A stretch of DNA of 64,000 bases, from assembly GCA_903893855.1 (NCBI GenBank), contig CAITNV010000054.1:32562-96561 (forward strand), given 5' to 3'. This document shows positions 8,387 through 60,762 of this stretch, piece after piece. A program made the position numbers and the translations under genes. The stretch comes from Candidatus Tayloriibacteriota bacterium. Lineage in GTDB: Bacteria > Patescibacteriota > Minisyncoccia > Phycocordibacterales > PALSA-1337. Each line of letters opens with the position of its first letter. Positions within the stretch are counted from its first letter, which is position 1. Under the pieces are notes generated by a model. It was given only the letters and a program-made list of their open reading frames with translations, did not search any database and was not told the origin of the DNA.

Positions 8387-8432
8387 TTTTATGCACGCTT
8401 GTTAATATTACCCGATAAAGTAAAATAGAGTT

Positions 8433-9206: not shown

Positions 9207-9227
9207 TACTATATAGAAGGGTGAAAA

Positions 9228-10514: not shown

Positions 10515-10526
10515 ATTTTGGTTTTA

Positions 10527-11579: not shown

Positions 11580-11587
11580 GTTTTTGA

Positions 11588-12649: not shown

Positions 12650-12686
12650 CTATATAATTCTACCACAACATACGCTGGATGTAATA

Positions 12687-13109
12687 CTACTTGCGAGGTA
12701 AACGCATTCCGTTATTGTTAACCGGAGGGGGTTGGAATTGTTGTCTATTTTTTGCTTGTATTGAGGCTGGTGTTGCTACGGTTGCGGCTGACGCTAAACG
12801 TTTGTTCTCGGCACGGACTGAGAGATGTGTCATTGCAACATCAAGTATCCACAATGGTAATGAACCAGCAACGAGCTCTTCAAAGAAGAAAGTTGCAACG
12901 AGTGTTAATATACGCCCCGGTTTAGCCATAGAAACACCTCTCCAGTAGAAATAACCTCCCAATATTGCACCAATCCCTGCATCGGCAAATTCGTTTATAA
13001 ATTCTCCAGGACCTGGGAAAAAAACATCAATAAGCGGTTGCCCAATATCACATGCCAATGTGAAGCAATAAAGTACTATCCAATCTACAGTTTTCATTTT
13101 TGAACCCAT
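12687..13109 (-). CDS. Small integral membrane protein (2-3 TM) immediately downstream of the VirB4-like ATPase
   Basis: The 140-aa protein has hydrophobic segments. It lies within the co-directional operon. Confidence 0.5.
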   Translation of the reverse strand: MGSKMKTVDWIVLYCFTLACDIGQPLIDVFFPGPGEFINEFADAGIGAILGGYFYWRGVSMAKPGRILTLVATFFFEELVAGSLPLWILDVAMTHLSVRAENKRLASAATVATPASIQAKNRQQFQPPPVNNNGMRLPRK

Positions 13110-13120
13110 TTTGTTGCGTT

Positions 13121-14947: not shown

Positions 14948-14955
14948 TTTTTTAT

Positions 14956-15615: not shown

Positions 15616-15616
15616 A

Positions 15617-16078
15617 TTAACGTTGATTTCTATTACTATAGAGACTTTCTTTAATATCGAGACTCCATGCAAGGTCTTTCAATTTACTTTCTGAAATCTT
15701 CGGCACCATAATACCCGCATAATTCTTGCCGAGGCGTACATCTTCCGCCGCTTGTTCCCCCGGAGTCATATTCTTCTGTAGTGCAGGATCTGGACGGCGA
15801 TTTACTTTCTTCCAGATGTAGAGTTTGGCAGCGAAGTAGTATTTGAATGCCGCTTCAACAACAAAAATGAATGGTTTATTGTTGATTCTATAGAAAGCGA
15901 GGGCCCCAGAAAAAGTAGCAACTACAACTATAAACGGGAATGCAAGGAGTAATGGTAAAAATTTATACAATAGGAAACAAATTCCAGCCCCACCAGCCAT
16001 ATAAATAAATTGGCGCAAGGTGAATGGGCCGAAAATCTTGTCCTCAACTTCGATAAATTGTGGGACTTGGAACTGCAT
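15617..16078 (-). CDS. PrgI/VirB3-like small membrane protein
   Basis: The N-terminus MQFQVPQFIEVEDKIFGPFTLRQFIYMAGGAGICFLLYKFLP is followed by a second TM. This is characteristic of the PrgI family, which is encoded just upstream of VirB4 in Gram-positive T4SS. Confidence 0.6.
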   Translation of the reverse strand: MQFQVPQFIEVEDKIFGPFTLRQFIYMAGGAGICFLLYKFLPLLLAFPFIVVVATFSGALAFYRINNKPFIFVVEAAFKYYFAAKLYIWKKVNRRPDPALQKNMTPGEQAAEDVRLGKNYAGIMVPKISESKLKDLAWSLDIKESLYSNRNQR

Positions 16079-16098
16079 GCGTATATTATACCCTACTC

Positions 16099-16749
16099 TT
16101 ACGCGATTGGCTCGCGGTATGGATCAGAAGTAGTGTTCGGCGTTTGAGGTTGAGGGTTTTTTGTTGTCACGGGAGCGGACATGAATTGATCGAGGAGATT
16201 GATAGACTTTACCGCAGGTGCTGGAGCTGTTGCAGGAGCGGATACAGGTGTTGCTATTGGGGTTGGGACAGTGTGCGCTTCCTGACCAGCGACAATTGCT
16301 GGATATTCCGCGAGGAGATTTACAGGAGTTGGTGTTGCAGTATTCTGTGCGAGCGTGGTCGGATTTTCAATTCCTTTTAGGGTATTTGCACGAGCAATTG
16401 CTTCATTGTCCAACTTTTCGTCATCATTCGTATCTTCGAGTTTTTGTAGGCTCTCACGAATACTACCAATTATATCAGTGTTTATGTCACCAGCTATATC
16501 TCTCGCTGTCTCTCTTGGGATCTCGACGTTATCACTTAGATTTGAAATTAAATTATTAGAACTTTCAAGGCCAAGCATGACAAGCATCGTCTCGGTCTGT
16601 ATGTCCCCAGCTTGTTCTATGGTTAAGGCGTATTTTTTTGATATTTTAGCAAATTTCTCAGGAAGGTTTCCTCCTGTTATCGCATCTTGAATCTCTCGGG
16701 GAAGAAGCTCAAAGTTTTTTTTAATTAATTGTTGTGTTTCAGGTTCCAT
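16099..16749 (-). CDS. Hypothetical protein (no TM; Pro/Thr/Ala-rich C-terminus) within the T4SS-like operon
   Basis: The 216-aa protein is co-directional and tightly spaced with its neighbours. Confidence 0.5.
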   Translation of the reverse strand: MEPETQQLIKKNFELLPREIQDAITGGNLPEKFAKISKKYALTIEQAGDIQTETMLVMLGLESSNNLISNLSDNVEIPRETARDIAGDINTDIIGSIRESLQKLEDTNDDEKLDNEAIARANTLKGIENPTTLAQNTATPTPVNLLAEYPAIVAGQEAHTVPTPIATPVSAPATAPAPAVKSINLLDQFMSAPVTTKNPQPQTPNTTSDPYREPIA

Positions 16750-16755
16750 ATTGTA

Positions 16756-18573
16756 TTATTTTTTATCTGGTTTGTTTTTTGCATCACCGTCACTTTTTTC
16801 TTCGGTTAGCAGATCTTTTATATCATCTGCAATTTTTTCATTTTTTGATTTATTCATTCCTTTACGGATCTTATTGGCGGCATCTTTCCTGCCCTTTTTG
16901 GTCATGTTAAAGAAGCCTGCACCCTTTTCAAGATTATTAGCGTATTCCTCCTTGCCTTGCTTTGACAGCCTACCTTGAATATCTGTATCATCGACAGCTC
17001 TTTCCGATGCCTCTTTTTTTGCAGCATCCATTACAGCTTTTAGTCTTTCTGCACGTGCCGCTTCTTCCGCTCTCTCTCGAGCGCTTAAATTGCTATCTGT
17101 AGATCTAGATGCTGCCAGATTATACAAGCGCTCTTTTTTGTTGGCTTCATATTCTAACCTCTTTGTCTCTTTCTTATACTCGTCAGGAGTTATTCTTGAT
17201 AGTGCGCGATCGGCAAACTTTGTTTGTGATTCAGTATATTTTTTTAATCTGTCACTATAGCCGCCTTTTGAGCCGCCAAATGTAGCATTCGTAGTCCTTG
17301 AAACTATTTGTTTATCTACAAGGTTTCCGATAGTAGGATTAGAAGTAACAAATCTTTTGAATTTATCATTATCAGCAACATATTTGGCACCCCTTCCAAT
17401 TGTGTGTTGGCCGACCCAACCTGCACTACCGCTTACGCCGCTTGTAAGCTTCCCTTGTCCCCATTTCTTAGCGCTCTGGCCTAATTTAACTGCGATATCA
17501 GTTCCATCTGAACCAATTTTAATTGCAGCCGCCATCGGGGCATTGATAAACATAAAGGCAATGATGTATTGGAGGACGATACCGACAACATTTGGAGAGA
17601 CGAGAGCATTACCGAGTGTGCCAGTTGTCGAAGATACTTTTGCAAAATCAAAGAAACGTGGATCATTAATAACGCTAACCGCAACATACATAAGAAATAG
17701 ATACACCGGCATAAAGAGACACATTGCAATGAGTGTCTTTTTCCACTGCTCGGCGTATTGCTCTGCTTGTGGCAATATCATAGCGATGAAATAGATCGGC
17801 GAGAAAGCCATGAGAAGGATAAGAATTCCTAGTCGTACTGCGAATGCCACCGCCGCAAAGAGGAAGCTTCCTGCTGCAGCAAGCATAAGGACTGTTCCTC
17901 CGGCATACGCAAGGGTAATCGTACGGTTATTATTAGGATCTCCCCCACCATTTGGAGCAATAGCGCTAGCTCCAACGATCTTGTTGATACTCAAGCTCTG
18001 CATGAATACATTCGATAGACCTCCATCGTTAAACGCTGAAGATATCATTCCATTAAAGCCGTTAGTTGCAGCCACGGTATCTTGTCCGGGGGCAATAGCG
18101 TTATAGAACGATAGCGATATGATGTTTGAAGTATCTACTGCGAGCCGAGTAAAGAAAAGGCTGAAGTTAATAAGGAGACCAGCAATAATAATATTTTTAA
18201 TTAGCGTAGAAAGATCCGCGTTCTTTAGCCCTAAAATCATCTTGATTGAAGCATACAGAAGCATGAATATTATGAATATGCTCGAGAAGTCTCGAATGGT
18301 TCTCCATGCAATACCAATTGCCGTTACTTTATCGACGATAGTTTGAATGTGAAGAGTAGCTACAAGTGTTCCATTGAGAAGCACTCCAGTGAGGGTCAAA
18401 ATTGCTCCAGCTGCAGCGAATGCTAGTTCGGCGATCCATGATGTTACTGTAAATATGGTCGCTGTAACATCAATACCCAAAAATGCATACGCAAAGTGCG
18501 GCGTAATAAGCGTCAATAACGGTATCGCGATTGCAACAGCGGTAATTATTTTTTTGTACGAGTTGCTTTTCAT
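16756..18573 (-). CDS. VirB6/TrbL-like polytopic membrane protein with a long Lys/Glu-rich C-terminal hydrophilic tail
   Basis: A signal-like N-terminus is followed by at least 6 predicted TM helices and an about 230-aa charged tail. This architecture is typical of VirB6/TrbL and the Gram-positive PrgH/TcpH proteins. Confidence 0.6.
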   Translation of the reverse strand: MKSNSYKKIITAVAIAIPLLTLITPHFAYAFLGIDVTATIFTVTSWIAELAFAAAGAILTLTGVLLNGTLVATLHIQTIVDKVTAIGIAWRTIRDFSSIFIIFMLLYASIKMILGLKNADLSTLIKNIIIAGLLINFSLFFTRLAVDTSNIISLSFYNAIAPGQDTVAATNGFNGMISSAFNDGGLSNVFMQSLSINKIVGASAIAPNGGGDPNNNRTITLAYAGGTVLMLAAAGSFLFAAVAFAVRLGILILLMAFSPIYFIAMILPQAEQYAEQWKKTLIAMCLFMPVYLFLMYVAVSVINDPRFFDFAKVSSTTGTLGNALVSPNVVGIVLQYIIAFMFINAPMAAAIKIGSDGTDIAVKLGQSAKKWGQGKLTSGVSGSAGWVGQHTIGRGAKYVADNDKFKRFVTSNPTIGNLVDKQIVSRTTNATFGGSKGGYSDRLKKYTESQTKFADRALSRITPDEYKKETKRLEYEANKKERLYNLAASRSTDSNLSARERAEEAARAERLKAVMDAAKKEASERAVDDTDIQGRLSKQGKEEYANNLEKGAGFFNMTKKGRKDAANKIRKGMNKSKNEKIADDIKDLLTEEKSDGDAKNKPDKK

Positions 18574-18580
18574 ACTGGTA

Positions 18581-20152
18581 TTAGTTTACACCATTATTCG
18601 CAGTCGGGCTAAATGTCTGACAAGCATAGAGCCGGTTATTTGCATCTGACTGTATTGGATCGATGGTAGAACGCAATGTGGTTAGATCTGTATTTGATTG
18701 GGTTACTGCTGCAGTTGACGGAAGGTTACCACTCGCCGCTAAGCCCTGTAACTGCTGGCTTGGATCATTGAGGCCGGTTGCGTTCTGGGCGTCTGAGAAT
18801 TTATTTGCAAGATCAATCAATGATTGATATGAAGAGCTTGCATTGTTGTATTTTACGGTGCTCTGGGCTACAAGAGGCGCGACTTGGGTAAGAATTATAG
18901 TGTTAATCTGGTCTAGCTGACCTTGAGCATGAGCGACCGCAAGTGCATTCGTTTGATTACCTACACCGTAACTTGGTTGTGAGTACTTTGTAATCAAATC
19001 GTTGTTACAACTTTGTGCTTTATTGAGTGTCGTTTGTGCAGCAAGTACAATGTTGAGGCCTACTTGGGCGTTCTGTGTTACTTGTTGAGCATTGTTTAAA
19101 TACGGCTGTATATTATTAATCGTAGACGCCTGTACAGATTGAAGATTATTGCTCTGCTCAGCTTGTATTTGCTGAACATACGCGGTGTTACTTGTTCCAT
19201 TTGAACCGCTAATTGCACCAAGGCCACTCTTAAGTGCAATAAGAACGAGCTGAGAGAAAGCGGCATTAATAATCGCATTAATATCATTTGCGAGTTCAAG
19301 CTCATCAGTTGGTACGCCGAGACTTTTATTAAGTGTGGCCGAAATAGCGCTTCCTGGTGTCTGAACCTCACAATCCTGTCCTGTACCTTGGCCCGAATAG
19401 TCTTCTGGATCGTCAGTACATTTTTCGAAAGAAAGAAAGCCGTTCGCACTTAAAACAAAGTTTTGTTTTAAGGTGACTTGTTGGCCGATTTTTGCATTGA
19501 GATCACTTTGTGCAAGAAGAAATGCACCATTTGGATTGTTTGCTGGTACTGTGGTTAACGTAAGAAATGCCGGCCATCCTCCTTGTCGGAAATCACCAGC
19601 CGTAAAGCCATTTATTGAAGCACCTTTAACGGCGTTCTTTGTATTCTTTACCATGTCACTTAATGTACATGTATAGGGGTTTTTGATTCCTCCCGACATC
19701 TCGAGTGCTAGAGAGATTCGAACACTTATATTAAATGGGCTACAAAGGCTCGCCGCGAGAGGGCTGACACTTGAGAGGAATTTACCCGCAATCTGATCAC
19801 CCACTCCTTCGAAGAATTTTGTTGGATTCTGGATAAAAGAAGGGCTACCATTAAAACCTGAGTTAATCCAAGAGATTATACTAAGGGTTAATTGTTGAAG
19901 TATTTGCTTCACAATCATTACCGCTACTTTATCGAGGCTAAAAGATTTTAGTTGAAGTAATGACTCGGATTGTGCGGATACTCCAGCAGATGCTGCAATT
20001 GTACTAGTGTTTGTTTCTACAAGTATGTCTGAGACGATGTCCCCCGCTCCAAACAATGCATCAACCTTTTTTGGTGCATAAAGTTGTGAGCTTGCAAGTA
20101 CAACAAGCGCGAAGGATATAATGATTGATGTTTTTTTAAAAAAGAAATTCAT
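18581..20152 (-). CDS. Hypothetical secreted Gln/Asn/Ser/Thr-rich protein (523 aa)
   Basis: The signal peptide is MNFFFKKTSIIISFALVVLASSQLYA. The protein is low-complexity Q/N-rich and has a few Cys residues. Confidence 0.55.
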   Translation of the reverse strand: MNFFFKKTSIIISFALVVLASSQLYAPKKVDALFGAGDIVSDILVETNTSTIAASAGVSAQSESLLQLKSFSLDKVAVMIVKQILQQLTLSIISWINSGFNGSPSFIQNPTKFFEGVGDQIAGKFLSSVSPLAASLCSPFNISVRISLALEMSGGIKNPYTCTLSDMVKNTKNAVKGASINGFTAGDFRQGGWPAFLTLTTVPANNPNGAFLLAQSDLNAKIGQQVTLKQNFVLSANGFLSFEKCTDDPEDYSGQGTGQDCEVQTPGSAISATLNKSLGVPTDELELANDINAIINAAFSQLVLIALKSGLGAISGSNGTSNTAYVQQIQAEQSNNLQSVQASTINNIQPYLNNAQQVTQNAQVGLNIVLAAQTTLNKAQSCNNDLITKYSQPSYGVGNQTNALAVAHAQGQLDQINTIILTQVAPLVAQSTVKYNNASSSYQSLIDLANKFSDAQNATGLNDPSQQLQGLAASGNLPSTAAVTQSNTDLTTLRSTIDPIQSDANNRLYACQTFSPTANNGVN

Positions 20153-20158
20153 TATATT

Positions 20159-21088
20159 TTAATGTAAATTTGGCGCAATGATATATCCCGCTTCAGTTGG
20201 TGTGAATGTGATATTTGCTGATTTCAAATATTGACCGACCTCAGTTAGGGCATTTGAAAGATCTAGAACACCTTTTTGATATGCACTAAGTCCCGCAAGA
20301 CTTGTAATGCCGTCAGAATATACTTTCGCTAGGCTTTCATCGGCAAATACTATTTCATTCATTGCATTTACGAGATCAACATGAATTTTTGTTAGCGCTG
20401 ACGGTGCCGGAGTTGCGATAAAATTTTTTAAAATGTTTTGATACGAAGTGATGATCGGGTCGAGCTGTTTGAGCAAGTCAGGGTTCTTTGTATTGAGGCT
20501 GTTTTGCACAATTTCCGGTTCGTATGAATGAATTGTGGTGTTAGCCTTGATGACGGTGACAATAGAATTAACGTATCTTTTAATCGAAATGACGCTATTA
20601 TCAGGTGTAATTAAGATATCTTTTGAGGTGTAAACTTTCGGAGTCGCAATATATGTCCCATCGGCCAAGACCTGATTAGTGATCTGTTGTTGAATTTGCG
20701 GGTCATTAAAATTAACTCCTGCCTTTTGGTATTCAGCATATTTTGAAAAGAGATCTCGGCTAAAAAGGTCAGTCGCCGTAAGGTTAGTTTGTACTGGTGC
20801 CGCTTTCCCTGTTGCCCATGTTGAACTAGCTCCGAGTGTTCCAGAAAGAGACTTTTGCCAATTACCCTCATATGCAACAAGTGAGTTTTGTATAGATGTT
20901 GTAGCGGTCATAATTGCTTTATTGAGCGTAGCAACCTGCTGCTGTTGAGCAACACTCGCATCATTTTGGTATTTTGAAACCACAAAAGCACCAAGGATAA
21001 TAAGGACAGCAGTCGTAATTAGTATAAAGTTTTTAGCGCTAGGTTGTTTCAAGGCGTGTAGCTGGCTAGTAATTTGCATATAGAGCAA
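20159..21088 (-). CDS. Hypothetical bitopic membrane protein (short cytoplasmic N-terminus, one TM, about 260-aa extracytoplasmic domain). Its topology is VirB8-like, but no similarity is claimed. It is the first gene of the T4SS-like operon.
   Basis: The TM is FILITTAVLIILGAFVV. The upstream 21089-21174 region is AT-rich and promoter-like. Confidence 0.5.
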   Translation of the reverse strand: MLYMQITSQLHALKQPSAKNFILITTAVLIILGAFVVSKYQNDASVAQQQQVATLNKAIMTATTSIQNSLVAYEGNWQKSLSGTLGASSTWATGKAAPVQTNLTATDLFSRDLFSKYAEYQKAGVNFNDPQIQQQITNQVLADGTYIATPKVYTSKDILITPDNSVISIKRYVNSIVTVIKANTTIHSYEPEIVQNSLNTKNPDLLKQLDPIITSYQNILKNFIATPAPSALTKIHVDLVNAMNEIVFADESLAKVYSDGITSLAGLSAYQKGVLDLSNALTEVGQYLKSANITFTPTEAGYIIAPNLH

Positions 21089-28609: not shown

Positions 28610-29215
28610 TTATTGTTCACTCTTTTCAACGGGAGGTGTATTTGGTCGAATTCTTCGGTCTGTACGCTCACGCCGTCCTCTTTGTCCCCCACCGTTTGAT
28701 GGAGAGCCCGCAATCAGAAGATATTTACGAGGGTTTTGATCAAGGTCGATAAAGTCATCAGCCGCTTCTATAAGCTTGCTCGATGTCGATTTTCCGAAAG
28801 AAACTACTTCAACCTGACATCCTTCATGGATCTGGAGGAATTCAACGAGTGGAATAAAATCTCCATCTCCTGTAACAAGGACAACTGCATCCAGTTTTGG
28901 TGCTAATTGCACGGCATCAATTGCCATACCAACGTCCCAATCGGCTTTTTTGCTTCCTCCTGAGAATATTTGAAGGTCCTTAGTCTTCGCTTCGATCCCC
29001 ATTTTAACTAAGGCTTCGAAAAAGGCTTTTTCGTCCCCCGCTTCGGTTGTAATAACATATGCTACCGCTCGGATGAGAGAACGGTCTCCAAGGGCATCTT
29101 TGACTATTTGTGCGAAATTAACTCGTGCGTGATAAAGGTTTTTTGCTGTATGATAAAGGTTTTGCGTATCGATAAAAATACCAACTCGCTGTTCTTTGTG
29201 TTTAATAACTGCCAT
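28610..29215 (-). CDS. NYN-domain (LabA-like, PIN-related) protein
   Basis: The N-terminus VGIFIDTQNLYHTAKNLY...VAYV is followed by LVTGDGDFIPLVEFLQ, as in NYN/LabA proteins. The C-terminus is a Gly/Arg-rich tail. Confidence 0.75.
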   Translation of the reverse strand: MAVIKHKEQRVGIFIDTQNLYHTAKNLYHARVNFAQIVKDALGDRSLIRAVAYVITTEAGDEKAFFEALVKMGIEAKTKDLQIFSGGSKKADWDVGMAIDAVQLAPKLDAVVLVTGDGDFIPLVEFLQIHEGCQVEVVSFGKSTSSKLIEAADDFIDLDQNPRKYLLIAGSPSNGGGQRGRRERTDRRIRPNTPPVEKSEQ

Positions 29216-29301
29216 AAAAAATAATATAGGCTATAAAAATAATAAATGTAAACGTACGAATACTTGAGAAAATAGAAAGAAGATAACAGTCTTAAGTAAA
29301 A

Positions 29302-29568
29302 CTATTTCTTAAGATCTAACTTTTTTGTTATTGAAGAATAGCGTCGAGGATACTTTTTCTTCAAGTAATTCAAATGTGTCTGTCGATCAGCTACCATGGC
29401 CAAAAGTCCACGTCGTGAGTGATTGTCTTTAGCGTGCTTCTTGAGGTGATTAGCTAGTTCCTCGATCTTTTTTGTAAGAATAGAAACTTGCACTTCTGGA
29501 GAGCCAGTATCTTTGTCGTGAATTGCGACTTCTTTAATAATCTTGCTTTTTTGTTTCGTTGTTAGCAT
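29302..29568 (-). CDS. rpsO: 30S ribosomal protein S15
   Basis: The sequence MLTTKQKSKIIKEVAIHDKDTGSPEVQVSILTKKIEELANHLKKHAKDNHSRRGLLAMVADRQTHLNYL is a clear S15 match. The start was trimmed to the internal Met of the track ORF. Confidence 0.92.
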   Translation of the reverse strand: MLTTKQKSKIIKEVAIHDKDTGSPEVQVSILTKKIEELANHLKKHAKDNHSRRGLLAMVADRQTHLNYLKKKYPRRYSSITKKLDLKK

Positions 29569-29631
29569 CGTGGTACCACAATAGCACAAATGGTCTTATG
29601 ATGCAAGCGATCTGTGTGTTTGTGATAGAAT

Positions 29632-30546
29632 ATGTGTATGTCGCACAACATCTCATCACCAATAGAACGGCTTAAAAAGGAGTTTTTACAGTATGTTGAA
29701 ATTGAAAAAGGGCGCAGTTTAAGCACCGTTTCCAACTATGATCACTATATATCTAGGTTTCTTGATTTCGCTAAGATAAAGGAAGCTTCTGAGATTACTG
29801 ACGATTTAGTAAGAAACTTCAGATTATGGCTTAATCGCCAAGGTTCTTTGAAGAAAAAGACTCAAAATTATTACCTTATCGCTTTTCGGGCTTTTCTTAA
29901 ATATATGGCTAAACGTGGGGTTGCCACCCTTCCTGCAGATAGAATTGAACTTGCCAAGGTTCCCGAACGGTCCCTTGACCTCATTTCAGCATCTGATTTG
30001 AAGCGTCTTTTTGATTCTCCAGACACCTCTACACCCGCAGGGCTTCGTGATAGAGCCATATTTGAGCTACTTTTCTCTACCGGTTTGCGCGTATCTGAGC
30101 TTTGTAGCCTTTCGAGAGACTTAGATATTAAAAGAGACGAATTCTCGATTAGAGGAAAGGGCGAGAAGGTAAGGGTTGTCTTTATATCCGAAAATGCTCG
30201 TAGTGCCGTAAAGAAATACATAGATTCACGGAAAGACATGGACGGTGCAATGTTTGTCCAAATTCCAAACAAAAAGATTAAATCGCAGAAATCATTGCGC
30301 CTAACTGCTCGTTCTGTCGAAAGAATTGTTAGTTACTACGCTGTTAAGGCTGGAATATCCAATAAAGTAACCCCACACGTGATACGGCACTCATTCGCTA
30401 CTGATTTATTGAGAAATGGGGCTGATTTGCGATCAGTTCAGATGCTTCTTGGACACTCAAATATATCAACTACCCAGATTTATACGCATATAACTGATAC
30501 TGAGCTTGGTAATATTCATAAAAAGTTCCATAATAAAGGAAAATAA
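29632..30546 (+). CDS. Tyrosine recombinase XerC/XerD family
   Basis: The motifs RDRAIFELLFSTGLRVSELCSL and HVIRHSFATDLLRNGADLRSVQMLLGHSNISTTQIYTH carry the R..HxxR..Y catalytic set. Confidence 0.88.
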   Translation: MCMSHNISSPIERLKKEFLQYVEIEKGRSLSTVSNYDHYISRFLDFAKIKEASEITDDLVRNFRLWLNRQGSLKKKTQNYYLIAFRAFLKYMAKRGVATLPADRIELAKVPERSLDLISASDLKRLFDSPDTSTPAGLRDRAIFELLFSTGLRVSELCSLSRDLDIKRDEFSIRGKGEKVRVVFISENARSAVKKYIDSRKDMDGAMFVQIPNKKIKSQKSLRLTARSVERIVSYYAVKAGISNKVTPHVIRHSFATDLLRNGADLRSVQMLLGHSNISTTQIYTHITDTELGNIHKKFHNKGK

Positions 30547-52456: not shown

Positions 52457-52921
52457 ATGCAGAGCCACAACGTACAACCAGTTCACAAAAATAAGCCGAC
52501 AATGATCGTTGGTCGTGGAGGACACCGAGGTAAGACTTCTGGCCGAGGAGGTAAGGGTCAGACAGCACGCGCAGGAAACAAGCGCCGTCCAGAACTCCGA
52601 GACTTCATTAAGCGTATTCCAAAGCTTCGAGGTCGTGGCAAGAGCTCATTTAAGTCTTTTGCTATTAAGCCAGTGAATGTATCTCTTGAAATGATCGAGG
52701 CTACATTCTCAGCGGGTGAAGTTATTACTCCAAAGATCCTTGTAGAGAAGAAGCTCGTTTCAATGCTTGGCGGTAATATCCCTAAAATCAAGATTATTGG
52801 CGGCAAAAAGCCTGCTGATAAGGCTGAATTCTCAAAGAAAGTGACTATTTCAGGTTGTATCGTATCTGTAGGAGCTAAGGCTTCGATTGAAAAAGCTGGT
52901 GGTTCTGTTACAGTTAAATAA
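52457..52921 (+). CDS. rplO: 50S ribosomal protein L15
   Basis: The motifs GRGGHRGKTSGRGGKGQTARAG are present. Confidence 0.92.
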   Translation: MQSHNVQPVHKNKPTMIVGRGGHRGKTSGRGGKGQTARAGNKRRPELRDFIKRIPKLRGRGKSSFKSFAIKPVNVSLEMIEATFSAGEVITPKILVEKKLVSMLGGNIPKIKIIGGKKPADKAEFSKKVTISGCIVSVGAKASIEKAGGSVTVK

Positions 52922-54192
52922 TGAATACATTTTTGGAAAAAATGAAGACAGTGTTTCGAGATCCTAGTATGAGAAAAAAGGTTCTCTTTACGCTTGGAGC
53001 ACTTGTAGTGTTTAGACTACTCGCGTCTATTCCTATGCCTGGAATTAATGCAGCGTCTCTGGCTAAATTCCTCTCAGGGAATCAAATCCTCGGTCTTTTT
53101 GATGTCTTCTCAGGTGGAGGAATATCACATTTCTCTATCGTGATGCTTGGAGTAGGTCCTTACATCACAGGATCTATTATCATGCAGCTTTTGACAATGA
53201 TGTCACCACGATTGAAGTCTCTTTTCCAAGAGGAAGGAGAGCGAGGACGCCAGAAGCTTTCTCAGTATTCACGACTTCTAGCGGTTCCTTTAGCACTTAT
53301 CCAAGCACTCGGTTTTATTAAACTTCTCCAGAGCCAGAATGTTCTTGGTTCTTTGTCTATCGGTGCTCTATTTACCAACATCATCGTTATATCTGCAGGT
53401 TCTATCCTCCTTATGTGGATTGGTGAACTTATTAGCGAATTCGGTATTGGAAACGGAGTATCACTCATCATTTTCGCTGGTATTATAGCTCAGCTTCCTA
53501 CGAAGGCTCTTCAGTTTAGCGCTACATTTGATTCTGCATCTATTCCAGTTTACATTGTGGCTCTCGCTGTTGGTCTTATTGTTATCCTCACGGTGGTATT
53601 TGTTACTGAAGCCGAACGATCAATTCCTGTAACCTACGCTAAGCAGGTTCGAGGTAATAAAGTCTACGGTGGTGTTTCTACATATCTTCCACTTCGCCTC
53701 AATCAGGCTGGTGTTATTCCTATCATATTCGCTCTTTCAATACTTGTTATCCCTCGAGTAGTCGCTGGCTTCTTCGCTACCGCTTCAAATGCAACTGTCG
53801 CTCATTTCGCTACTTTAGTAGGTAATATCTTGGCAAACGGCTGGATATACAATAGCTTGTACCTCTTGTTTGTTGTTATCTTCACGTACTTCTATACTGC
53901 AGTTACGTTTGATCCTAAGCAGATATCTGAGAATCTCCAGAAGGGTGGTGCTTTTATTCCAGGTATTCGCCCAGGTGATTCAACAATGCTTTATCTCGGT
54001 AAGGTTGTGACTCGAATTACTCTTGTTGGTGCATTATTCCTTGGTATCGTTGCAGTACTTCCACTTATTATGCAGTCAGTTACTGGTAACCAGATGCTTG
54101 CTATCGGCGGAACAGCACTCCTCATCGTTGTCTCAGTTATCCTTGACCTTGTAAAGAAAGTAGACGCTCAGATCTCAATGCAAGAGTATTAA
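52921..54192 (+). CDS. secY: Protein translocase subunit SecY
   Basis: The 423-aa protein has 10 TM helices. The N-terminus is RKKVLFTLGALVVFRLLASIPMPGIN. Confidence 0.95.
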   Translation: MNTFLEKMKTVFRDPSMRKKVLFTLGALVVFRLLASIPMPGINAASLAKFLSGNQILGLFDVFSGGGISHFSIVMLGVGPYITGSIIMQLLTMMSPRLKSLFQEEGERGRQKLSQYSRLLAVPLALIQALGFIKLLQSQNVLGSLSIGALFTNIIVISAGSILLMWIGELISEFGIGNGVSLIIFAGIIAQLPTKALQFSATFDSASIPVYIVALAVGLIVILTVVFVTEAERSIPVTYAKQVRGNKVYGGVSTYLPLRLNQAGVIPIIFALSILVIPRVVAGFFATASNATVAHFATLVGNILANGWIYNSLYLLFVVIFTYFYTAVTFDPKQISENLQKGGAFIPGIRPGDSTMLYLGKVVTRITLVGALFLGIVAVLPLIMQSVTGNQMLAIGGTALLIVVSVILDLVKKVDAQISMQEY

Positions 54193-54220: not shown

Positions 54221-54829
54221 ATGAATAAAAAAGCTTTTATAATGATTGGCCGTTCTGGCTGTGGAAAGGGTACACAGGCAAATCTTCTCTCTGAACATCT
54301 CTTAAAGTCTTCAGAACCGGAAGATACAGGCATTCCAAGTGTTCTTTATATTCAGAGTGGCAATGAATTTCGTGACTTCATGGCTCGCACAAGCTATACC
54401 GCTAAATTATCTCGACAAGTCGATGAAGTCGGCGGACTGCAACCTGAATTCTTAGCTGTATACATGTGGACCAACATTCTCGTTCGAGAATACAATGGTA
54501 ATGAACATCTCATTTTCGATGGTATGCCACGTAAAGTCCATGAAGCGGGCGTTCTTCACTCGATTTTTGAATTCTATAAGATTAGTCGACCACAGGTTAT
54601 TTATATAAATGTCTCTGCAGAATGGGCAACTAAACATTTGCTCGTTCGAGGGCGGCATGATGATAATGAGGTGGATATTAAAGCTCGTTTGAAGTGGTTC
54701 GACGAGAAAGTAATGCCAACCGTAGAGTTCTATCGTACCAATCCAGAATATGATTTTTATGAAATTAACGGCGAACAGTCAGTAGAAGACACACACAACG
54801 AGCTTATCAAGAAAGTTTTCGCAAAATAG
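54221..54829 (+). CDS. adk: Adenylate kinase
   Basis: The P-loop is IMIGRSGCGKGTQANLLSEHL. The gene sits in the conserved spc-operon position. Confidence 0.85.
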   Translation: MNKKAFIMIGRSGCGKGTQANLLSEHLLKSSEPEDTGIPSVLYIQSGNEFRDFMARTSYTAKLSRQVDEVGGLQPEFLAVYMWTNILVREYNGNEHLIFDGMPRKVHEAGVLHSIFEFYKISRPQVIYINVSAEWATKHLLVRGRHDDNEVDIKARLKWFDEKVMPTVEFYRTNPEYDFYEINGEQSVEDTHNELIKKVFAK

Positions 54830-54834: not shown

Positions 54835-55686
54835 ATGATAACTATTAAGACAAAAGAAGATATAGCCATATTACGAGAAGGTGGCAGACGACACGCTGCT
54901 ATTATGCGTGCTTTGGTGGCTATGGTTAAGCCTGATCTTGATATTGCAGAGCTCGATGCTGCAGCGGTTCGTCTTATTGGAGAATTTGATAAGGACGCCA
55001 ACGGTAATCGTTCGGGGGATAAGTCCGCTATTTTAAATTACAAACCATATGGAGCGAAGCGACCATATCCTGCAAGTACCTGCATATCTGTAAATGATGA
55101 AGTGGTGCACGGCATTCCTACTGAAAATAACCGCGTACTTGAAGAGGGTGATATCGTAAGTATCGATTTCGCTCTTGTTCATCGTGGTCTCATTACGGAT
55201 ATGGCGGTGACCGTACCGGTTGGCAAAGTCTCAACCGAGGTCAAAGACCTTGTTGAAGCCACAGAAAAGGCTTTAAAGGCAGGCATTACTGCTGCTAAGG
55301 GTGGAAACTACATTGGGGATATAAGTATGGCTATAGAGCGTTTTGGACGTGGTGGAGGGGGTAAAAGTGTGAATGGCGGTAAGGGATATGGCATAGTTGA
55401 AGAACTTGTAGGACATGGGGTTGGTTACGATGTTCATGAAGATCCATATGTACCAAACTATATTTCTGGAGTGCGCGGAACAAGCGCCGGAGCACACCAT
55501 CAAAAGGGTGATGTTTTACGTGCGGGTATGGTAATTGCAATTGAACCAATGTTTAATCTAGGTTCTCGAGAAGTTACTATTGATCCTGATGGATACACTA
55601 TTCGCACATATGACGGTAAACCAAGCGCTCATTTTGAACACACTGTGTTAATCACAAAAGGTGCTCCAGAGATACTGACGATATAA
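54835..55686 (+). CDS. map: Methionine aminopeptidase type I
   Basis: The motifs HGIPTENNRVLEEGDIVSIDFAL and the metal-ligand context HEDPYVPNY...AIEPM are present. Confidence 0.9.
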   Translation: MITIKTKEDIAILREGGRRHAAIMRALVAMVKPDLDIAELDAAAVRLIGEFDKDANGNRSGDKSAILNYKPYGAKRPYPASTCISVNDEVVHGIPTENNRVLEEGDIVSIDFALVHRGLITDMAVTVPVGKVSTEVKDLVEATEKALKAGITAAKGGNYIGDISMAIERFGRGGGGKSVNGGKGYGIVEELVGHGVGYDVHEDPYVPNYISGVRGTSAGAHHQKGDVLRAGMVIAIEPMFNLGSREVTIDPDGYTIRTYDGKPSAHFEHTVLITKGAPEILTI

Positions 55687-55711: not shown

Positions 55712-58585
55712 ATGGAAATTTTCTCACCGTCACAAGAGTCAAAAAATTTACAGACGCCTGAACAAGAATTGGCGTATCTACGTGAACGTCTTGCTGCAAA
55801 AGAAAAGGAGGTTGCGGCAATTCGCCAAGAAGGTGGTCCAGATAAGAGTCGCGATGCTCTAGTGCAAGAGACTCTTCATGAATACAAAAACACTCCGAAA
55901 GAACAACTTTTACATAAAGACTTTGCTCTTGCAAAAGAAAAGTCGGAAGCTATTGTCCTCGAACTTTCGCCTGAAGAACACGATGAGAAGATCGCCGAAC
56001 TTTTAGGAATTCTTCAGACTCATGGCGTACGAAATGCTCTTGATATCGTAGGTAAAATGAATAACCCTCATGTTGAGAGGGATTTTGAACGTTTCCTCGT
56101 GCAATACATCAAAGCAGGCTTCGAGCTACAAGGACTTCCGGAGAAGACTCCAGAGTTTAAAGCGCTACATATGACGCTCTATGAGATTACATTGCCCGAG
56201 AAGACCGATGAGGGTAAAGAGCGCGCTCTCAAAGAAGTGATTTCTTCAATGGAGCAGTTTTATGCTGGTATGATGTCGGTCGGTGGGGAAGCGACTGGCT
56301 CTGGAACGGGCTATTTTACTATAGAGCTTGCGGTGGCGAATCATAGTGATGAATTCGCTTTCCACGTTGCGGTGCACGATAGTAAGAAGAGCCTTTTTGA
56401 GAAGCAAATACTCGCGGTTTTCCATAATGCAAAGATCATCGAGAAGAAAGACGATTACAATATTTTTAATGAAGAAGGAGTGACTGTAGCTGCAAGTGCT
56501 CGCTATGCCAAGAATTCCGTTTGGCCACTTAAAACATATGATAAATTCGATCATGATCCGCTAAATATTCTTCTCAATAGCTTCTCAAAAATAAAGACGC
56601 ATGGAGAGGGTGCTGCGGTGCAGATCATAATTCGTCCTGCAGGACAAGGTCCAGCTAAAAAGTATCATAAGATTCTCGAAGAGATCATGAAGGGCGAGAA
56701 AGTAAGCGAAGCAATAGCTAATAGCGAGAGTGGGCTTATAAAGCATTTTGATGGCTTTATTAAAGGCGTTTCTGATTTTGTAATGCCTGCAACTAAAGAA
56801 GAGAAAGAAAAGGCAAAAGAAAAGAAGCGCGAAGCTGCACAGCGAGTCGACCAGACAGTAGTCGAAGCTATTAAAGAGAAATTAGCTTCTCCGATTATGG
56901 CTATAGACTTGAGGATTATAGCTTCTGGTGAGAATGAGACGACCGCGCAAGCTATCCTTGCGGACATAGAGTCTTCATTTAATCAATTCGAAAATACTTC
57001 GGGTAACCGTGTACAGTTCGATCATGCTAAAAAAGGTGCTTTACGGGACCTTCTACATGATTATACTTTTAGACTCTATGATGAAAAGAGCCAAATGTAC
57101 GCTTCTATAAAAGAGCTCACATCGATTATGCATTTCCCAGCTACGGTATTGAAATCATCTCCTCATCTTAAGGTTGCAAAGGCTGGTACTGCACCGGCAC
57201 CGCTTGATCTTCCTCGTCCTCCGGCATCGGCGGCTTCTTCTGCTGGTTCAAATGAACAAGCCAATACTCCTGCCCCCGGCTACGTCCTCCTTGGGGTTAA
57301 TCGAGATCGCAACACCGAGACTAAGGTCTTCATGACAGCAGAGGATAGACTCCGACACTTCTACGTTATCGGACAGACTGGTACTGGTAAGACCACGCTT
57401 TTGAAAAATATGCTTGCGCAAGACATTGCCGCAGGGGAGGGTGTCTGTATGATTGATCCACACGGTTCTGATATTCAGGATATTCTTTCTCTTATTCCCA
57501 AGTCTCGTTACGAAGATGTAATTTATTTTGATCCATCGCATACCGCGCGTCCTATGGCGCTTAACATGCTCGAATATGATCGCCGTTTCCCTGAGCAGAA
57601 GACTTTCGTCGTTAACGAAATGCTCTCTATCTTCAATAAACTTTTTGATATGAAGACAGCGGGAGGACCGATGTTCGAACAATACTTTAGAAATGCCGTG
57701 CTTCTTGTTATGGAGGATCCGGAGTCGGGTAATACCCTGCTTGATGTATCGCGAGTTCTGTCTAATAAAGTGTATCGTGAGATGAAGATTTCTCATTGTA
57801 AGAACCCTATCGTCGTGCAGTTCTGGAAAGAAGTCGCAGATAAAGCGGGAGGTGAAGCATCGCTTGCTAACGTCGTGCCATACATCACAAGTAAGTTCGA
57901 CGTGTTCTTGTCGAACGATATTATGCGACCGATTATTGCGCAGGAGAATTCAAGTATTAATTTCCGTGAGATTATGGATACTAAAAAGATTCTGCTGGTC
58001 AATCTTTCAAAGGGTCGCCTCGGTGACATTAATGCCAACCTTATCGGTCTTATTATCGTAGGTAAAATACTGATGGCTGCACTTTCTCGTGTGGATGTTG
58101 TAGGTAAAATGGGTCCGGACGGTAAGCCACTTGCTCTCGCACCATTTTATCTCTATATCGACGAGTTCCAGAACGTTACGACTGATTCTATTTCAACTAT
58201 TCTTTCTGAAGCTCGTAAGTACAAGCTCTCGCTCTCTGTCGCACACCAGTTCATCGCACAGCTTGAAGAGGGGATACGTGACTCAGTCTTCGGTAACGTT
58301 GGTTCTATAGCTGCATTTCGTGTGGGTGCTGAGGACGCCGAATATCTCGAGAAACAGTTCTCGCCGGTCTTCAATGCAAAGGACATTATGTCAGTCGACA
58401 ATCGTAATGCTTACATTAAAATGCTCGCAAATGGTCGCCCAGTTAAGCCGTTTAATATCGAGACCTTGCCTCCTCCGAAGGGTGACGTATCAGTAGTTGA
58501 AAGCATTAAAGAGCTCTCATATCTAAAGTACGGCAAAGATCGCGCCACTGTTGAAGACGCCATCATGTTGAAATACAAAAAATAA
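55712..58585 (+). CDS. Large soluble ATPase: an about 480-aa coiled-coil N-terminal region fused to a VirD4/TraG/TraD-like (type IV coupling protein family, TraM-recognition-type C-terminus) P-loop domain
   Basis: Walker A is GQTGTGKTT. MIDPHGS resembles the T4CP DPKGE motif. Walker B is LYIDEFQN. The C-terminal SLSVAHQFIAQLEE..IAAFRVGAEDAEYLEKQF parallels the VirD4 xxTQSxAQL...Ae.ls tail. No TM helices are present. Confidence 0.55.
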   Translation: MEIFSPSQESKNLQTPEQELAYLRERLAAKEKEVAAIRQEGGPDKSRDALVQETLHEYKNTPKEQLLHKDFALAKEKSEAIVLELSPEEHDEKIAELLGILQTHGVRNALDIVGKMNNPHVERDFERFLVQYIKAGFELQGLPEKTPEFKALHMTLYEITLPEKTDEGKERALKEVISSMEQFYAGMMSVGGEATGSGTGYFTIELAVANHSDEFAFHVAVHDSKKSLFEKQILAVFHNAKIIEKKDDYNIFNEEGVTVAASARYAKNSVWPLKTYDKFDHDPLNILLNSFSKIKTHGEGAAVQIIIRPAGQGPAKKYHKILEEIMKGEKVSEAIANSESGLIKHFDGFIKGVSDFVMPATKEEKEKAKEKKREAAQRVDQTVVEAIKEKLASPIMAIDLRIIASGENETTAQAILADIESSFNQFENTSGNRVQFDHAKKGALRDLLHDYTFRLYDEKSQMYASIKELTSIMHFPATVLKSSPHLKVAKAGTAPAPLDLPRPPASAASSAGSNEQANTPAPGYVLLGVNRDRNTETKVFMTAEDRLRHFYVIGQTGTGKTTLLKNMLAQDIAAGEGVCMIDPHGSDIQDILSLIPKSRYEDVIYFDPSHTARPMALNMLEYDRRFPEQKTFVVNEMLSIFNKLFDMKTAGGPMFEQYFRNAVLLVMEDPESGNTLLDVSRVLSNKVYREMKISHCKNPIVVQFWKEVADKAGGEASLANVVPYITSKFDVFLSNDIMRPIIAQENSSINFREIMDTKKILLVNLSKGRLGDINANLIGLIIVGKILMAALSRVDVVGKMGPDGKPLALAPFYLYIDEFQNVTTDSISTILSEARKYKLSLSVAHQFIAQLEEGIRDSVFGNVGSIAAFRVGAEDAEYLEKQFSPVFNAKDIMSVDNRNAYIKMLANGRPVKPFNIETLPPPKGDVSVVESIKELSYLKYGKDRATVEDAIMLKYKK

Positions 58586-58622
58586 ATAATGTTGTATACT
58601 ATATCCATAATATAATAATTTT

Positions 58623-59855
58623 ATGGCCACACTAAATCCAACATCACCAGAAGCAGAAGCAGAGCTTACTGAAGGTTTCAATGTAGAGAAAGCGTTGAAT
58701 ACCAAAGGTTTCGCTGAATTTCTTGCGAAATTTTCAGATGCAAAAGAGGGTGATATCTCGCCTGAGGATATGCAGGAGAGGTTTGAAGTTTACGAAGCTG
58801 TTGAAGGTGTAAGTAAAGCAGTTAAAGAAATATATTCTAAAGAAATTAGTGCAGAGCTCGGTATTGCACTTAGCGAAAAAGACATATCTTGCGTAGATGA
58901 ATATCTGAATAATTTAGCGGTAGAGAGTCCGAAGGAAGTTATGGATATGCAGGAGCGTATCGATACATACAATCGATTGCCTGAAGAAATCGCACAGGCA
59001 CAATCAGACATCGACAATCTTGCGATTAACGGAGGCTTTGAGGCTCGAGCAAAAGAGATGCATGATATGGATCAAATCCTTCAGACAGCAGATAAAGCTT
59101 CTAATACATGGGGTAAGGTTAAAATGAATGCCGGTTTACTTTGGGGTGCGTTTACGGGGAATTATGGAGAAAGTCAGGATATATCAAATGCACGTAAGAT
59201 TGCGGGTTTATATGGAGGTCCGTTGACAACAGAGGGCATTGCAAAGCGTCGTGCACAAATATCAACAGAAGCTGCAGCCCAACAACAGAAATATCAAGAG
59301 TTAAAGAGTGAAAAAGAGGCTGATTTAGGAAAGTTGAAAGGTTCGCTAGCCAATACACGCAATGCTCTTTTTGCACATGAAGAAATGACTAAGAAAGTTG
59401 TAAAGATTGCAACACTTAAGCTCGGGAACACGGTCAATAAGATTGCAGAACAGAAAGGTCTTGATAGTTTTGCAAAAGCATACGATAAGCTTGTTGAATC
59501 AAAGGTTGGTAATGAGACTGGAATTGAATATATTGCAGAGGGTGAAGAAGAAAGAATTGTTAATTCGCTTAATAAAGCGGCTGAACAGAAGGTTACCGAT
59601 GCAGTCATGGCTGCGTTTAATCAGGTGCAACTAAATAAAGCAGATCAGTTTTCAGGTCTCCAAAAATCACTTTCTGAAGTACTATCAGTTAAGAAGTTGG
59701 GAACTAAGAGTGAGCAAGAGACAAGGGATTCTATCGTAACAATCCTTACAGAAATTCTTGTGGTTCTCGATCCATCTGAACCAGCAACTGTTTTGAAAAA
59801 GATCCTTATGAAACAGCTTATTAAAAAGTTCCAAGCTAGCCCAATAACAGCATAA
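58623..59855 (+). CDS. Hypothetical protein (410 aa, acidic, coiled-coil-rich, no TM) downstream of the VirD4-like ATPase
   Basis: The ORF is long, co-directional and close-spaced with its neighbours. No recognisable motif is present. Confidence 0.55.
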   Translation: MATLNPTSPEAEAELTEGFNVEKALNTKGFAEFLAKFSDAKEGDISPEDMQERFEVYEAVEGVSKAVKEIYSKEISAELGIALSEKDISCVDEYLNNLAVESPKEVMDMQERIDTYNRLPEEIAQAQSDIDNLAINGGFEARAKEMHDMDQILQTADKASNTWGKVKMNAGLLWGAFTGNYGESQDISNARKIAGLYGGPLTTEGIAKRRAQISTEAAAQQQKYQELKSEKEADLGKLKGSLANTRNALFAHEEMTKKVVKIATLKLGNTVNKIAEQKGLDSFAKAYDKLVESKVGNETGIEYIAEGEEERIVNSLNKAAEQKVTDAVMAAFNQVQLNKADQFSGLQKSLSEVLSVKKLGTKSEQETRDSIVTILTEILVVLDPSEPATVLKKILMKQLIKKFQASPITA

Positions 59856-59859
59856 AGCC

Positions 59860-60141
59860 ATGAATAATATCTCATCTTTAGGTAGTTTAATTCAACAAGG
59901 TAAGCTCGAAGAAGCGAAGGCAGTACTCGCGAGTGTTGTTAATGCTCCACTCTCTGATGCTGATCGGGGACAAGCACTCGTAACACTTGCTATGGTCTAT
60001 ATGGAGGCTAAAAATAAGATTAATCAGGAATTCTTAGATGAAATTAAAAAGACGATTCAGGAGATTAAATCTCTCAATAAAGTAGAGTCAGGGATCAATG
60101 ATCAGGTAGATTTAGCAAAGGTTCGAGCTAAGCTTCAATAA
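59860..60141 (+). CDS. Small hypothetical helical protein (93 aa)
   Basis: Its start lies 5 nt after the upstream stop. The predicted fold is helical. Confidence 0.45.
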   Translation: MNNISSLGSLIQQGKLEEAKAVLASVVNAPLSDADRGQALVTLAMVYMEAKNKINQEFLDEIKKTIQEIKSLNKVESGINDQVDLAKVRAKLQ

Positions 60142-60153: not shown

Positions 60154-60762
60154 ATGAATACACATTTTAAACACGAACAAACACTCGTTGTTATTAAGCC
60201 TGATGGAATACAGAGGAGCCTTATTGGGGAAGTGATACAGCGCTATGAGCGAGTAGGTCTTAAGCTTGTTGCGATTAAAATGGTAGTTCCGACTGAAGAA
60301 TTTATAGAGAAGCACTATACGCTCGATCCAGAATGGAGAAGAATTACGGGTGAGAAGTCTATTAAAGGTTTTAAGGATAAAGGGCTTACGCCACCAACCG
60401 AAGATCCACTTGAATTAACTGGTTTGCTTCTTGGTAAACTTAAAAAATATATGACCAGCGGTCCTGTTATCGCTATGGTCTGGCAAGGTGCACATTCAGT
60501 CGCTATCGTGCGTAAGATTACTGGTGGAACTGAACCACTTACATCTCCTGTGGGCACGATACGAGGCGATTATGTACTCGATTCATATCAAATGTCTGAG
60601 TCTGATATTCGTTCAGTGCGCAATATTATTCATGCTTCCGGTTCAGTAGCTGAAGCAAAGAATGAGATCGTTCACTGGTTCACAAAAGATGAAATTATTG
60701 ACTATAAGATTGTGCAAGAACAGATTATGTACGATGTCAATCTCGACGGTATATTTGGCTAG
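60154..60762 (+). CDS. ndk: Nucleoside diphosphate kinase (long form with an internal insertion)
   Basis: The N-terminus is EQTLVVIKPDGIQRSLIGEVIQRYERVGLKLVAIK. A catalytic His context IIHASGS is present. The protein is 202 aa versus about 140 aa typical. Confidence 0.8.
   Translation: MNTHFKHEQTLVVIKPDGIQRSLIGEVIQRYERVGLKLVAIKMVVPTEEFIEKHYTLDPEWRRITGEKSIKGFKDKGLTPPTEDPLELTGLLLGKLKKYMTSGPVIAMVWQGAHSVAIVRKITGGTEPLTSPVGTIRGDYVLDSYQMSESDIRSVRNIIHASGSVAEAKNEIVHWFTKDEIIDYKIVQEQIMYDVNLDGIFG

Follow-up and report, generated by a model that had tools for sequence, protein, structure and literature searches.

Soluble type IV secretion ATPases found across the Patescibacteria, with a predicted VirB4-like N-terminal domain

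The DNA considered here, referred to as the window, is the whole stretch of 64,000 nucleotides analysed from contig CAITNV010000054.1 of a Candidatus Tayloriibacteriota bacterium. Directly after its secY, adk and map genes, as the initial annotation had reported, three co-directional open reading frames (ORFs) lie on the + strand, coding for proteins of 957 amino acids (aa; 55712-58585), 410 aa (58623-59855) and 93 aa (59860-60141). The 957-aa protein is a member of a very large family of soluble type IV secretion ATPases found throughout the Patescibacteria (the candidate phyla radiation, CPR), and it combines a fused small partner, a domain catalogued as DUF8128 and an ATPase resembling type IV coupling proteins (T4CPs). 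The favoured reading, to which a probability of about 0.5 is given, is that it forms a hexameric motor which docks on the T4SS (type IV secretion system) via its VirB4-like domain and acts as a coupling or energising ATPase, with the 410- and 93-aa proteins as lineage-specific adaptors or substrates.

The RecA-like ATPase domain occupies residues 525-920 (57284-58471, +) and falls in the VirD4/VirB4 clade. The motifs on which the T4CP assignment had originally been based are all present: the Walker A sequence GQTGTGKT at G554-T561 (57371-57394, +), DPHG at 582-585, the Walker B motif IDEFQN at 816-821 (58148-58174, +) and AHQFIAQL...GAEDAEYL at 844-879. In 87 homologues, the Walker A residues, DPHG, D817-E818 within YIDEFQN and AHQFIAQL are invariant or nearly so. 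The C-terminal half is matched by the Pfam families DUF87, TraG-D_C and TrwB_AAD_bind, the last two just over the cut-off (25 bits against 22, and 22.1 against 20.5), and an identical public protein (P0001) carries precomputed assignments to PF26449 (DUF8128), PF01935 and PF12696; PF02534 is recorded for some relatives only. The NCBIfam models SXT_TraD, VirD4-like CD1115 (aa 536-875), TrbC and TraD also match, all far under their curated cut-offs. Sequence and profile searches of the PDB return TrwB (3.7e-7) and DotL (2.7e-5) as best matches, so that, judged by sequence, the domain is closest to the coupling proteins (TrwB, DotL, TraD, VirD4). The nucleotide-binding domain, with its Walker A and Walker B motifs, is of the FtsK/HerA superfamily; neither a HerA HAS-barrel N-domain, nor FtsK alpha or gamma domains, nor a best similarity to HerA or FtsK-SpoIIIE was found in the protein. 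The profile comparison that had been proposed for distinguishing these families comes out in favour of T4CP over HerA.

An AlphaFold2 (AF2) model built from the 87-sequence alignment has a mean predicted local distance difference test score (pLDDT) of 84.2, and places in order a set of helices (16-135), an alpha/beta domain (154-472), a low-confidence linker, the RecA-like domain (525-920) and two terminal helices. The linker, rich in Pro, Ala and Ser, spans aa 476-524 (57137-57283, +) with pLDDT values of 50-65, lowest at 507-513. In the predicted structure, an all-alpha insertion (helices in aa 629-742) separates Walker A from Walker B, as in T4CPs, and 362 of the 420 TrwB residues can be aligned to the model. 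The N-terminal half had been described as a 480-aa coiled coil; this is wrong, being contradicted by its composition and by the AF2 models, in which a helical module is followed by a folded alpha/beta domain.

This alpha/beta domain (aa 153-475; 56168-57136, +) corresponds to DUF8128, as a profile built from distant relatives matches residues 153-458 with an E-value of 3.6e-69. Its predicted fold matches solely the N-terminal domain of VirB4/TrwK, and it is classed as VirB4-like by two methods; the resemblance is thus predicted at the level of the fold. In the R388 system, it is this part of VirB4 that fastens the protein to VirB3/VirB8 at the inner-membrane complex. At the level of sequence, no link was detected between the DUF8128 profile and the VirB4 of the window, and an hhalign comparison of the 957-aa protein with that VirB4 gave a probability of 2.5%. 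The protein has no match to the VirB4 sequence families CagE_TrbE_VirB, AAA_10 or P-loop_TraG, and the match to TIGR00929 is confined to 24 residues of the P-loop (547-570), scoring 21 bits against a cut-off of 643. No paper that mentions DUF8128 was found in the literature.

The absence of N-terminal transmembrane (TM) helices was also borne out. The N-terminal half contains no TM-like segment, nor do the 410- and 93-aa proteins; in the ATPase, no 19-residue window with a Kyte-Doolittle mean of at least 1.6 occurs before residue 773, and in the models the N-terminal 520 residues form soluble domains. The N-terminal TM anchor of T4CPs is therefore not present, and no TM-like segment that could anchor the 957-, 410- or 93-aa protein was seen. 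In this the ATPase differs from the VirD4-family T4CPs (TrwB of R388, DotL/IcmO, TraD, Cag-beta), which are TM-anchored; it further differs from them in some 520 extra N-terminal residues including the VirB4-NTD-like fold (NTD, N-terminal domain), in scoring far under the curated NCBIfam cut-offs, and in not being located beside relaxase or T4SS genes in CPR. It is also distinct from VirB4 (TrwK of R388 and the C-terminal domain of the T. pseudethanolicus VirB4), since it lies outside the VirB4 sequence families and its gene is not adjacent to VirB3/VirB6; the gene setting typical of VirB4, with VirB3, VirB6 and VirB8 in a T4SS cluster, is not that of the ATPase gene.

The first 135 residues (55712-56116, +) form an acidic helical module (helices 16-135 in the structure models; isoelectric point 5.2). 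Most family members are about 800-830 aa long and align to residues 150-952, and the first 150 or so residues are specific to this Paceibacteria subfamily. When a profile of residues 1-150 was compared with 416 ORFs, the top two matches (E 2e-7) were L092:9533-9982 and L093:9565-9984, ORFs of 149 and 139 aa, each of which adjoins, on the upstream side, the ~830-aa ATPase of a distant CPR genome. The module and these two ORFs have in common the motif K-I/V-x-x-L-L...G-I/V...L-x-D-P-x-L-x-D-x-F/H. Because the profile picks out ORFs that adjoin the ATPases, the module is a small partner protein which is a separate gene elsewhere in CPR and is fused here. The partner has no family match above threshold in Pfam, NCBIfam, PADLOC or PHROGs.

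The family to which the protein belongs is very large: at E<=1e-3 it comprises 19,711 cluster representatives, and at E<=1e-30 there are still 4,683. More than 1,748 close matches, 60-80% identical, are all from CPR, and every named match among the 6,113 of the profile search is from Patescibacteria. The relatives are annotated as T4SS DNA-binding domain-containing, TraM recognition domain-containing or DUF87 proteins. At least 570 GTDB species carry the ATPase, and identity within the class is 60-80%. Among 79 distinct species-level related loci, ndk lies at most four genes downstream of the ATPase in 40 (directly adjacent in 23) and map at most five genes upstream in 34; the order map-ATPase-ndk-betaCASP-(rplT/infC) recurs in about half of them, several being simply map-ATPase-ndk, while the other half have unrelated contexts. 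The same position is conserved over dozens of species at 52-73% identity. This shared synteny indicates that the ATPase is a core gene and not an insertion; the family as a whole is vertically inherited and found throughout the Patescibacteria.

Members beyond the main type are also found. Distant members lie between cysS/dnaB and dnaX (L091, L092), and in one paralogue type the ATPase is 45-48% identical and the N-domain is unrecognised by the DUF8128 profile. A stand-alone T4CP-like ATPase without the N-domain, ending in a disordered Gly/Arg/Asp-rich tail, is encoded at L054:21206-22774; it is 43% identical to the ATPase domain of the window and shares its contig with a DUF8128 gene, 8 kb downstream of which it lies. 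The metagenome-assembled genome (MAG) CALRBL01 of Nomurabacteria has two full-length DUF8128 ATPase genes (L020 and L041) with 61% mutual identity, reflecting either true paralogy or a mixed bin.

Outside CPR, plasmids of Bacillaceae encode DUF87/DUF8128 proteins (WP_248290882.1 of Shouchella clausii and WP_144625398.1 of Bacillus subtilis NRS6116_2) which have the same TM-less architecture of DUF8128 followed by a T4CP-like ATPase. They are 24% identical over 672 aa (E 3e-32), and are recognised by the DUF8128 profile at E 2e-22 and 2.4e-28; compared with the window protein, they are without the first module of ~135 aa and have an acidic C-terminal tail. Their genes are immediately upstream of a replication-relaxation family (relaxase-type) gene and Tcp-type or conjugal-transfer genes, which is the position of a coupling protein. 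No experimental characterisation of these relatives was found in the literature. A tblastn search against plasmids gave 220 records, most of them with 28-34% identity in the ATPase half (Bradyrhizobium, Sulfitobacter, Streptomyces, haloarchaea). Among them, a 708-aa protein of the non-mobilisable Bradyrhizobium sp. 131 plasmid p131_1 (L006, positions 1-12232) is 33% identical in the ATPase half, has an N-terminal region of ~300 aa unrecognised by the DUF8128 profile, and is flanked by CHAT-domain and TPR proteins in a defence- or signalling-like context.

The candidate partner machine is encoded in the window itself. The VirB4/VirB6 operon previously noted is found on the - strand at ~9.2-21.1 kb, 35-46 kb away from the ATPase, and is a complete-looking operon of the monoderm type (9228-21088). 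It codes for a VirB4-like protein (13121-14947; Pfam P-loop_TraG 2.9e-26 and AAA_10), a PrgI/VirB3-like protein (15617-16078; PrgI 1.7e-9), a VirB6-like protein with eight TM-like segments (16756-18573), pilin-like proteins (10527-12649, one at 10527-11579, with weak T4SS_pilin matches) and several single-TM, membrane-anchored proteins without a family match (some of them at 18581-21088), all on the - strand. No second T4CP-like gene was found in the window. The T4SS of CPR is descended from the MPF-FATA systems of monoderms, and no recognisable coupling protein is encoded in its gene clusters (PMC12102498, PMC10633639); this includes the essential cluster of Southlakia epibionticum described by Wang et al. 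in 2023 (PMC10633639). No T4SS before that of the Patescibacteria had been shown to be essential to the cell that carries it; the substrate, transport direction and coupling ATPase of the Patescibacteria system are not yet established (PMC10633639, PMC12857230).

The following mechanism may be proposed. A CPR ancestor would have acquired the ATPase together with a monoderm-type T4SS, and the gene would later have moved into the core genome; in the lineage of the window, it is found between map and ndk, probably as part of one transcript with the spc operon. The protein is probably a hexameric, ATP-driven motor which would dock on the chromosomal T4SS (VirB3/VirB4/VirB6, 9-21 kb) by means of its VirB4-like N-domain in place of a membrane anchor, and, once docked, might recruit or push the T4SS substrate. 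The 410- and 93-aa proteins would be its lineage-specific, fast-evolving partners, either an adaptor/regulator pair in the manner of CagZ or IcmS/W, or a substrate with its chaperone. This reading is favoured because of the VirB4-like N-domain, the lack of a TM helix, the fused partner, the plasmid relatives in transfer loci and the T4SS operon in the window; because the CPR T4SS clusters contain no recognisable coupling protein; and because the family is CPR-wide and conserved, with tight, operon-like spacing to the 410- and 93-aa genes and adjacency to them in either order. It is further favoured by the T4SS-type neighbours in one Pacebacteria locus and by an essential gene pair of similar layout in Southlakia, both described below.

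Several observations weigh against this reading. No VirB4, PrgI or VirB6 homologue lies within 10 kb of the ATPase in any of 80 related CPR loci, so that, of the earlier suggestion of an orphan coupling ATPase serving the T4SS operon, the T4CP-like motor stands and the positional link does not. In a 2025 survey of 3,035 CPR genomes by Quinonero-Coronel et al., VirB4 was present in 2,417, and 5,713 VirD4-type T4CP homologues were counted in 2,918 of the genomes, 148 of them near virB4; T4CP homologues are thus found in more CPR genomes than VirB4, at about two per genome (PMC12102498). With such a distribution and so few homologues near virB4, strict co-variation of the ATPase with the T4SS operon is unlikely. 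Moreover, the NCBIfam T4CP cut-offs are missed widely (SXT_TraD, 48 bits against 366; CD1115, 39.5 against 250), VirD4 and VirB4 are not separable by structure alone, docking, oligomeric state and substrate are all inferred, and the role of the 410- and 93-aa proteins is drawn solely from their position and composition. Lastly, SEML1_0293 of Southlakia, the T4CP homologue picked up there by the 2025 survey, is non-essential although the T4SS is essential.

The genetic association with relaxase or T4SS genes that marks T4CPs is likewise missing in CPR, the exceptions within the family being the Bacillaceae plasmid relatives and a locus of Pacebacteria (L093), where a T4SS pilin gene is 2.5 kb from the ATPase and a cell-wall amidase gene is within 2.5-5 kb downstream. 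In this locus (L093:12815-18481), the DUF8128 ATPase is followed by genes for a 118-aa protein, a 599-aa single-TM protein, a T4SS_pilin protein and a 1,027-aa Amidase_2/SpoIID protein; it is the sole CPR locus seen with T4SS-type neighbours.

The Southlakia genome offers a comparison in an organism where essentiality has been determined. SEML1_0142 (1,019 aa) is essential, as is SEML1_0141 (139 aa), 12 bp upstream, and SEML1_0293 (921 aa) is non-essential (PMC10633639). Both large proteins have an N-terminal region of ~360-380 aa followed by a P-loop domain, a layout similar to that of the window ATPase, and their NCBI names (TraM recognition domain-containing and T4SS DNA-binding domain-containing) are like the annotations of the family. 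The small-ORF-plus-ATPase arrangement of SEML1_0141/0142 mirrors that of L092 and L093 and the fusion in the window, the likeness described here being one of layout and names. Any functional transfer from Southlakia depends on which protein is the orthologue, as the SEML1_0141/0142 pair is essential and SEML1_0293 is not.

The principal rival explanation is that the protein descends from a T4SS ATPase and is now a T4SS-independent housekeeping motor, a cytoplasmic translocase or remodeller of nucleic acids or proteins, with a part, for instance, in handling the chromosome or nucleoid, or in RNA/DNA processing linked to nucleotide salvage. This is possible, if somewhat unlikely, and is favoured by the distribution wider than that of VirB4, the lack of positional linkage and the housekeeping operon context. 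It would explain the core-gene behaviour of the ATPase, which keeps 60-80% identity where neighbour genes have 23-28%, which is never beside virB4 in related loci, and which sits in operons of the type secY-adk-map-X-ndk-RNaseJ-like here and cysS/dnaB...X...dnaX in L091 and L092. Genomes also contain several paralogue types, and the authors of the survey allow for exaptation of the CPR T4CP homologues, since the Southlakia homologue is non-essential (PMC12102498). However, the linkage to ndk and map is lineage-specific and lost in distant members, and therefore says little on function, and the N-domain keeps a fold that in VirB4 binds membrane components of the T4SS. The plasmid relatives in transfer loci and the pilin and amidase genes of L093 likewise speak against this rival; moreover, ~80% of CPR genomes do have VirB4, and MAG incompleteness can explain part of the gap between the two distributions. 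A narrower version based on nucleotide salvage, suggested by the adk/ndk/RNase-J-like neighbourhood, was rejected, as the linkage is found in one lineage only, distant members lie between dnaB/cysS and dnaX, and the placement of adk after secY is ancestral. Should the ATPase indeed be independent of the T4SS, it would be a clear example of exaptation, with a conjugation ATPase turned into a core gene.

Returning to the coupling-ATPase reading, its putative partners are the products of the 410- and 93-aa genes. The 410-aa protein is acidic, all-helical and fast-evolving; only seven homologues were found, and it is 23% identical to its positional orthologue in L004, against 63% for the ATPase of that genome. 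The 93-aa protein is helical and weakly TPR-like (a sub-threshold TPR_19 match, 0.0048), with 28% identity to L004:14142-14435. Neither has a match above threshold in Pfam, NCBIfam, PADLOC or PHROGs. The initial annotation treated the three genes as a trio; iterated profiles recover the pair in only ~12 distinct lineages, always beside the ATPase and always in the order large-small, the 93-aa-type gene directly after the 410-aa-type gene. The pair is downstream of the ATPase in the window, L004 and L022, and upstream in L015, L023, L029, L031, L033, L035, L042, L043 and L046. A conserved trio was also rejected on the evidence of L009, whose 582- and 69-aa genes at the equivalent place have no similarity to the pair, and of the many loci in which map, the ATPase gene and ndk are directly adjacent.

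The persistence of adjacency despite such reshuffling argues for a functional link of the pair to the ATPase. Near the N terminus of the 410-aa protein, the motif ALNTKGFAEFL is invariant, and the C-terminal 30 residues carry a net positive charge in most homologues. The large protein ranges from 410 to 1,645 aa, and forms enlarged to 1,217-1,645 aa or duplicated in tandem (L023:4297-9231, L043:4983-8633, L042:5182-9186) suggest modular or repeat growth. By analogy, the pair may be an adaptor/regulator, or a substrate with a small chaperone. In known systems, CagZ is bound to Cag-beta, IcmS/IcmW/LvgA are bound to DotL, and VirE2-VirE1 form an effector-chaperone pair; these are likewise small helical proteins, or a large and a small protein, beside a coupling ATPase, and fast-evolving. 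No sequence or profile similarity to CagZ, IcmS/IcmW/LvgA or VirE1/VirE2 was detected.

A second alternative, also raised initially, is an anti-phage or anti-plasmid defence ATPase of the HerA/DndH/MADS type, with the 410- and 93-aa proteins as sensor or effector partners. It may draw on a PADLOC mad8 match (E 2.7e-11, aa 548-911), on the ATPase-domain relatives of mostly non-mobilisable plasmids, one of them flanked by CHAT/TPR proteins, and on neighbour genes that diverge fast and vary in size. Defence genes usually have a patchy distribution and sit in islands, whereas this ATPase is near-universal, single-locus and syntenic, with housekeeping-level conservation. Furthermore, no nuclease, methyltransferase, Sir2 or other effector domain was found among the neighbours with Pfam, NCBIfam or PADLOC, the pair is absent from most loci, and the profiles prefer T4CP to HerA. 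A defence role therefore fits the data poorly and is very unlikely. The fit is just as poor, and the probability close to negligible, for a conjugative or other mobile element that integrated after map, displaced the rest of the ribosomal cluster and left the ATPase as its remnant or cargo. The T4CP-like sequence, the plasmid relatives beside relaxases and a match of phrog_5156 to aa 148-952 (1.3e-78) might suggest such an origin, which is largely refuted by the synteny over dozens of species. The locus also has no GC shift, no repeats and neither a relaxase nor an integrase gene, the sole integrase-family gene being 25 kb away.

Searches against phages and IMG/VR by tblastn gave matches of the ATPase half only, at 21-42% identity, and a phage origin, as phrog_5156 could have implied, was rejected. 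These relatives include IMG/VR contigs (L094-L110) and gp156 of the jumbo Bacillus phage G, which resemble the ATPase half at 27-42% identity.

The occurrence of orphan T4CP homologues in CPR is already known, which limits the surprise, and the N-domain is already catalogued as a domain of unknown function. Judged by the literature that could be searched, four findings are new: the VirB4-like fold of DUF8128, the small partner in its fused form, the Bacillaceae transfer-locus relatives without TM helices and the mobile 410/93-aa pair. Strongly conserved across the phylum, and with a T4CP-like motor, no TM helix and a predicted VirB4-like docking domain, the ATPase is a concrete candidate for the missing T4SS component, and it has testable handles in the fused or separate small partner, the invariant ALNTKGFAEFL motif of the 410-aa protein and the Bacillaceae plasmid relatives in genetically tractable hosts. 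The DUF8128 ATPases also bear on the divergence of VirB4 and VirD4. A more ambitious proposal, which is speculative and rated as unlikely, is that they are the "missing" coupling or energising motor of the essential Patescibacteria T4SS and a VirB4-VirD4 evolutionary intermediate, a T4CP-type motor with an ancestral VirB4 docking domain instead of an anchor; the window protein would then be the fused equivalent of SEML1_0141/0142, working with fast-evolving substrates or adaptors such as the 410/93 pair and possibly moving host-derived macromolecules.

The genes around the ATPase follow one another on the + strand as secY (52921-54192), adk (54221-54829), map (methionine aminopeptidase, Peptidase_M24; 54835-55686), the 957-, 410- and 93-aa genes, ndk (60154-60762; Pfam NDK 1.8e-36) and a beta-CASP/RNase-J-like gene, beyond which rplT-rpmI-infC lie on the opposite strand. 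Map and ndk are the conserved upstream and downstream neighbours. The gaps from map to ndk are, in order, 25, 37, 4 and 12 bp, a scan found promoter-like and terminator-like sites at background level only, and the map-ATPase gap holds no terminator above background. With gaps so short and signals at background, the layout from map to ndk is operon-like. The initial annotation also stated that the genes infA-rpmJ-rpsM-rpsK-rpsD-rpoA-rplQ are absent after map, which, for the first four, agrees with a search of the whole window in which E. coli query sequences found no InfA, RpmJ, RpsM or RpsK homologue. Its view that the ATPase replaces the 3' end of the ribosomal cluster did not hold, as the GC content is flat over the whole window, unremarkable at the ATPase gene, and the position is conserved in about half of the 79 relatives; a recent insertion or mobile element was rejected on the same grounds.

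Three further features were observed away from the ATPase or beside its distant members. Between the T4SS operon and the ribosomal cluster, the window encodes an NYN-domain protein (28610-29215, -) and a XerC/D-type tyrosine recombinase (29632-30546, +), and nothing suggests that this pair (28610-30546) is linked to the ATPase locus. A conserved protein of ~200 aa, without a Pfam match above threshold, is encoded just after the ATPase and before dnaX in both distant loci (L091:13287-13892 and L092:12708-13301; 62% identical). In the second of these loci, an intein that includes a LAGLIDADG endonuclease domain interrupts the DnaB gene (L092:1-2663).

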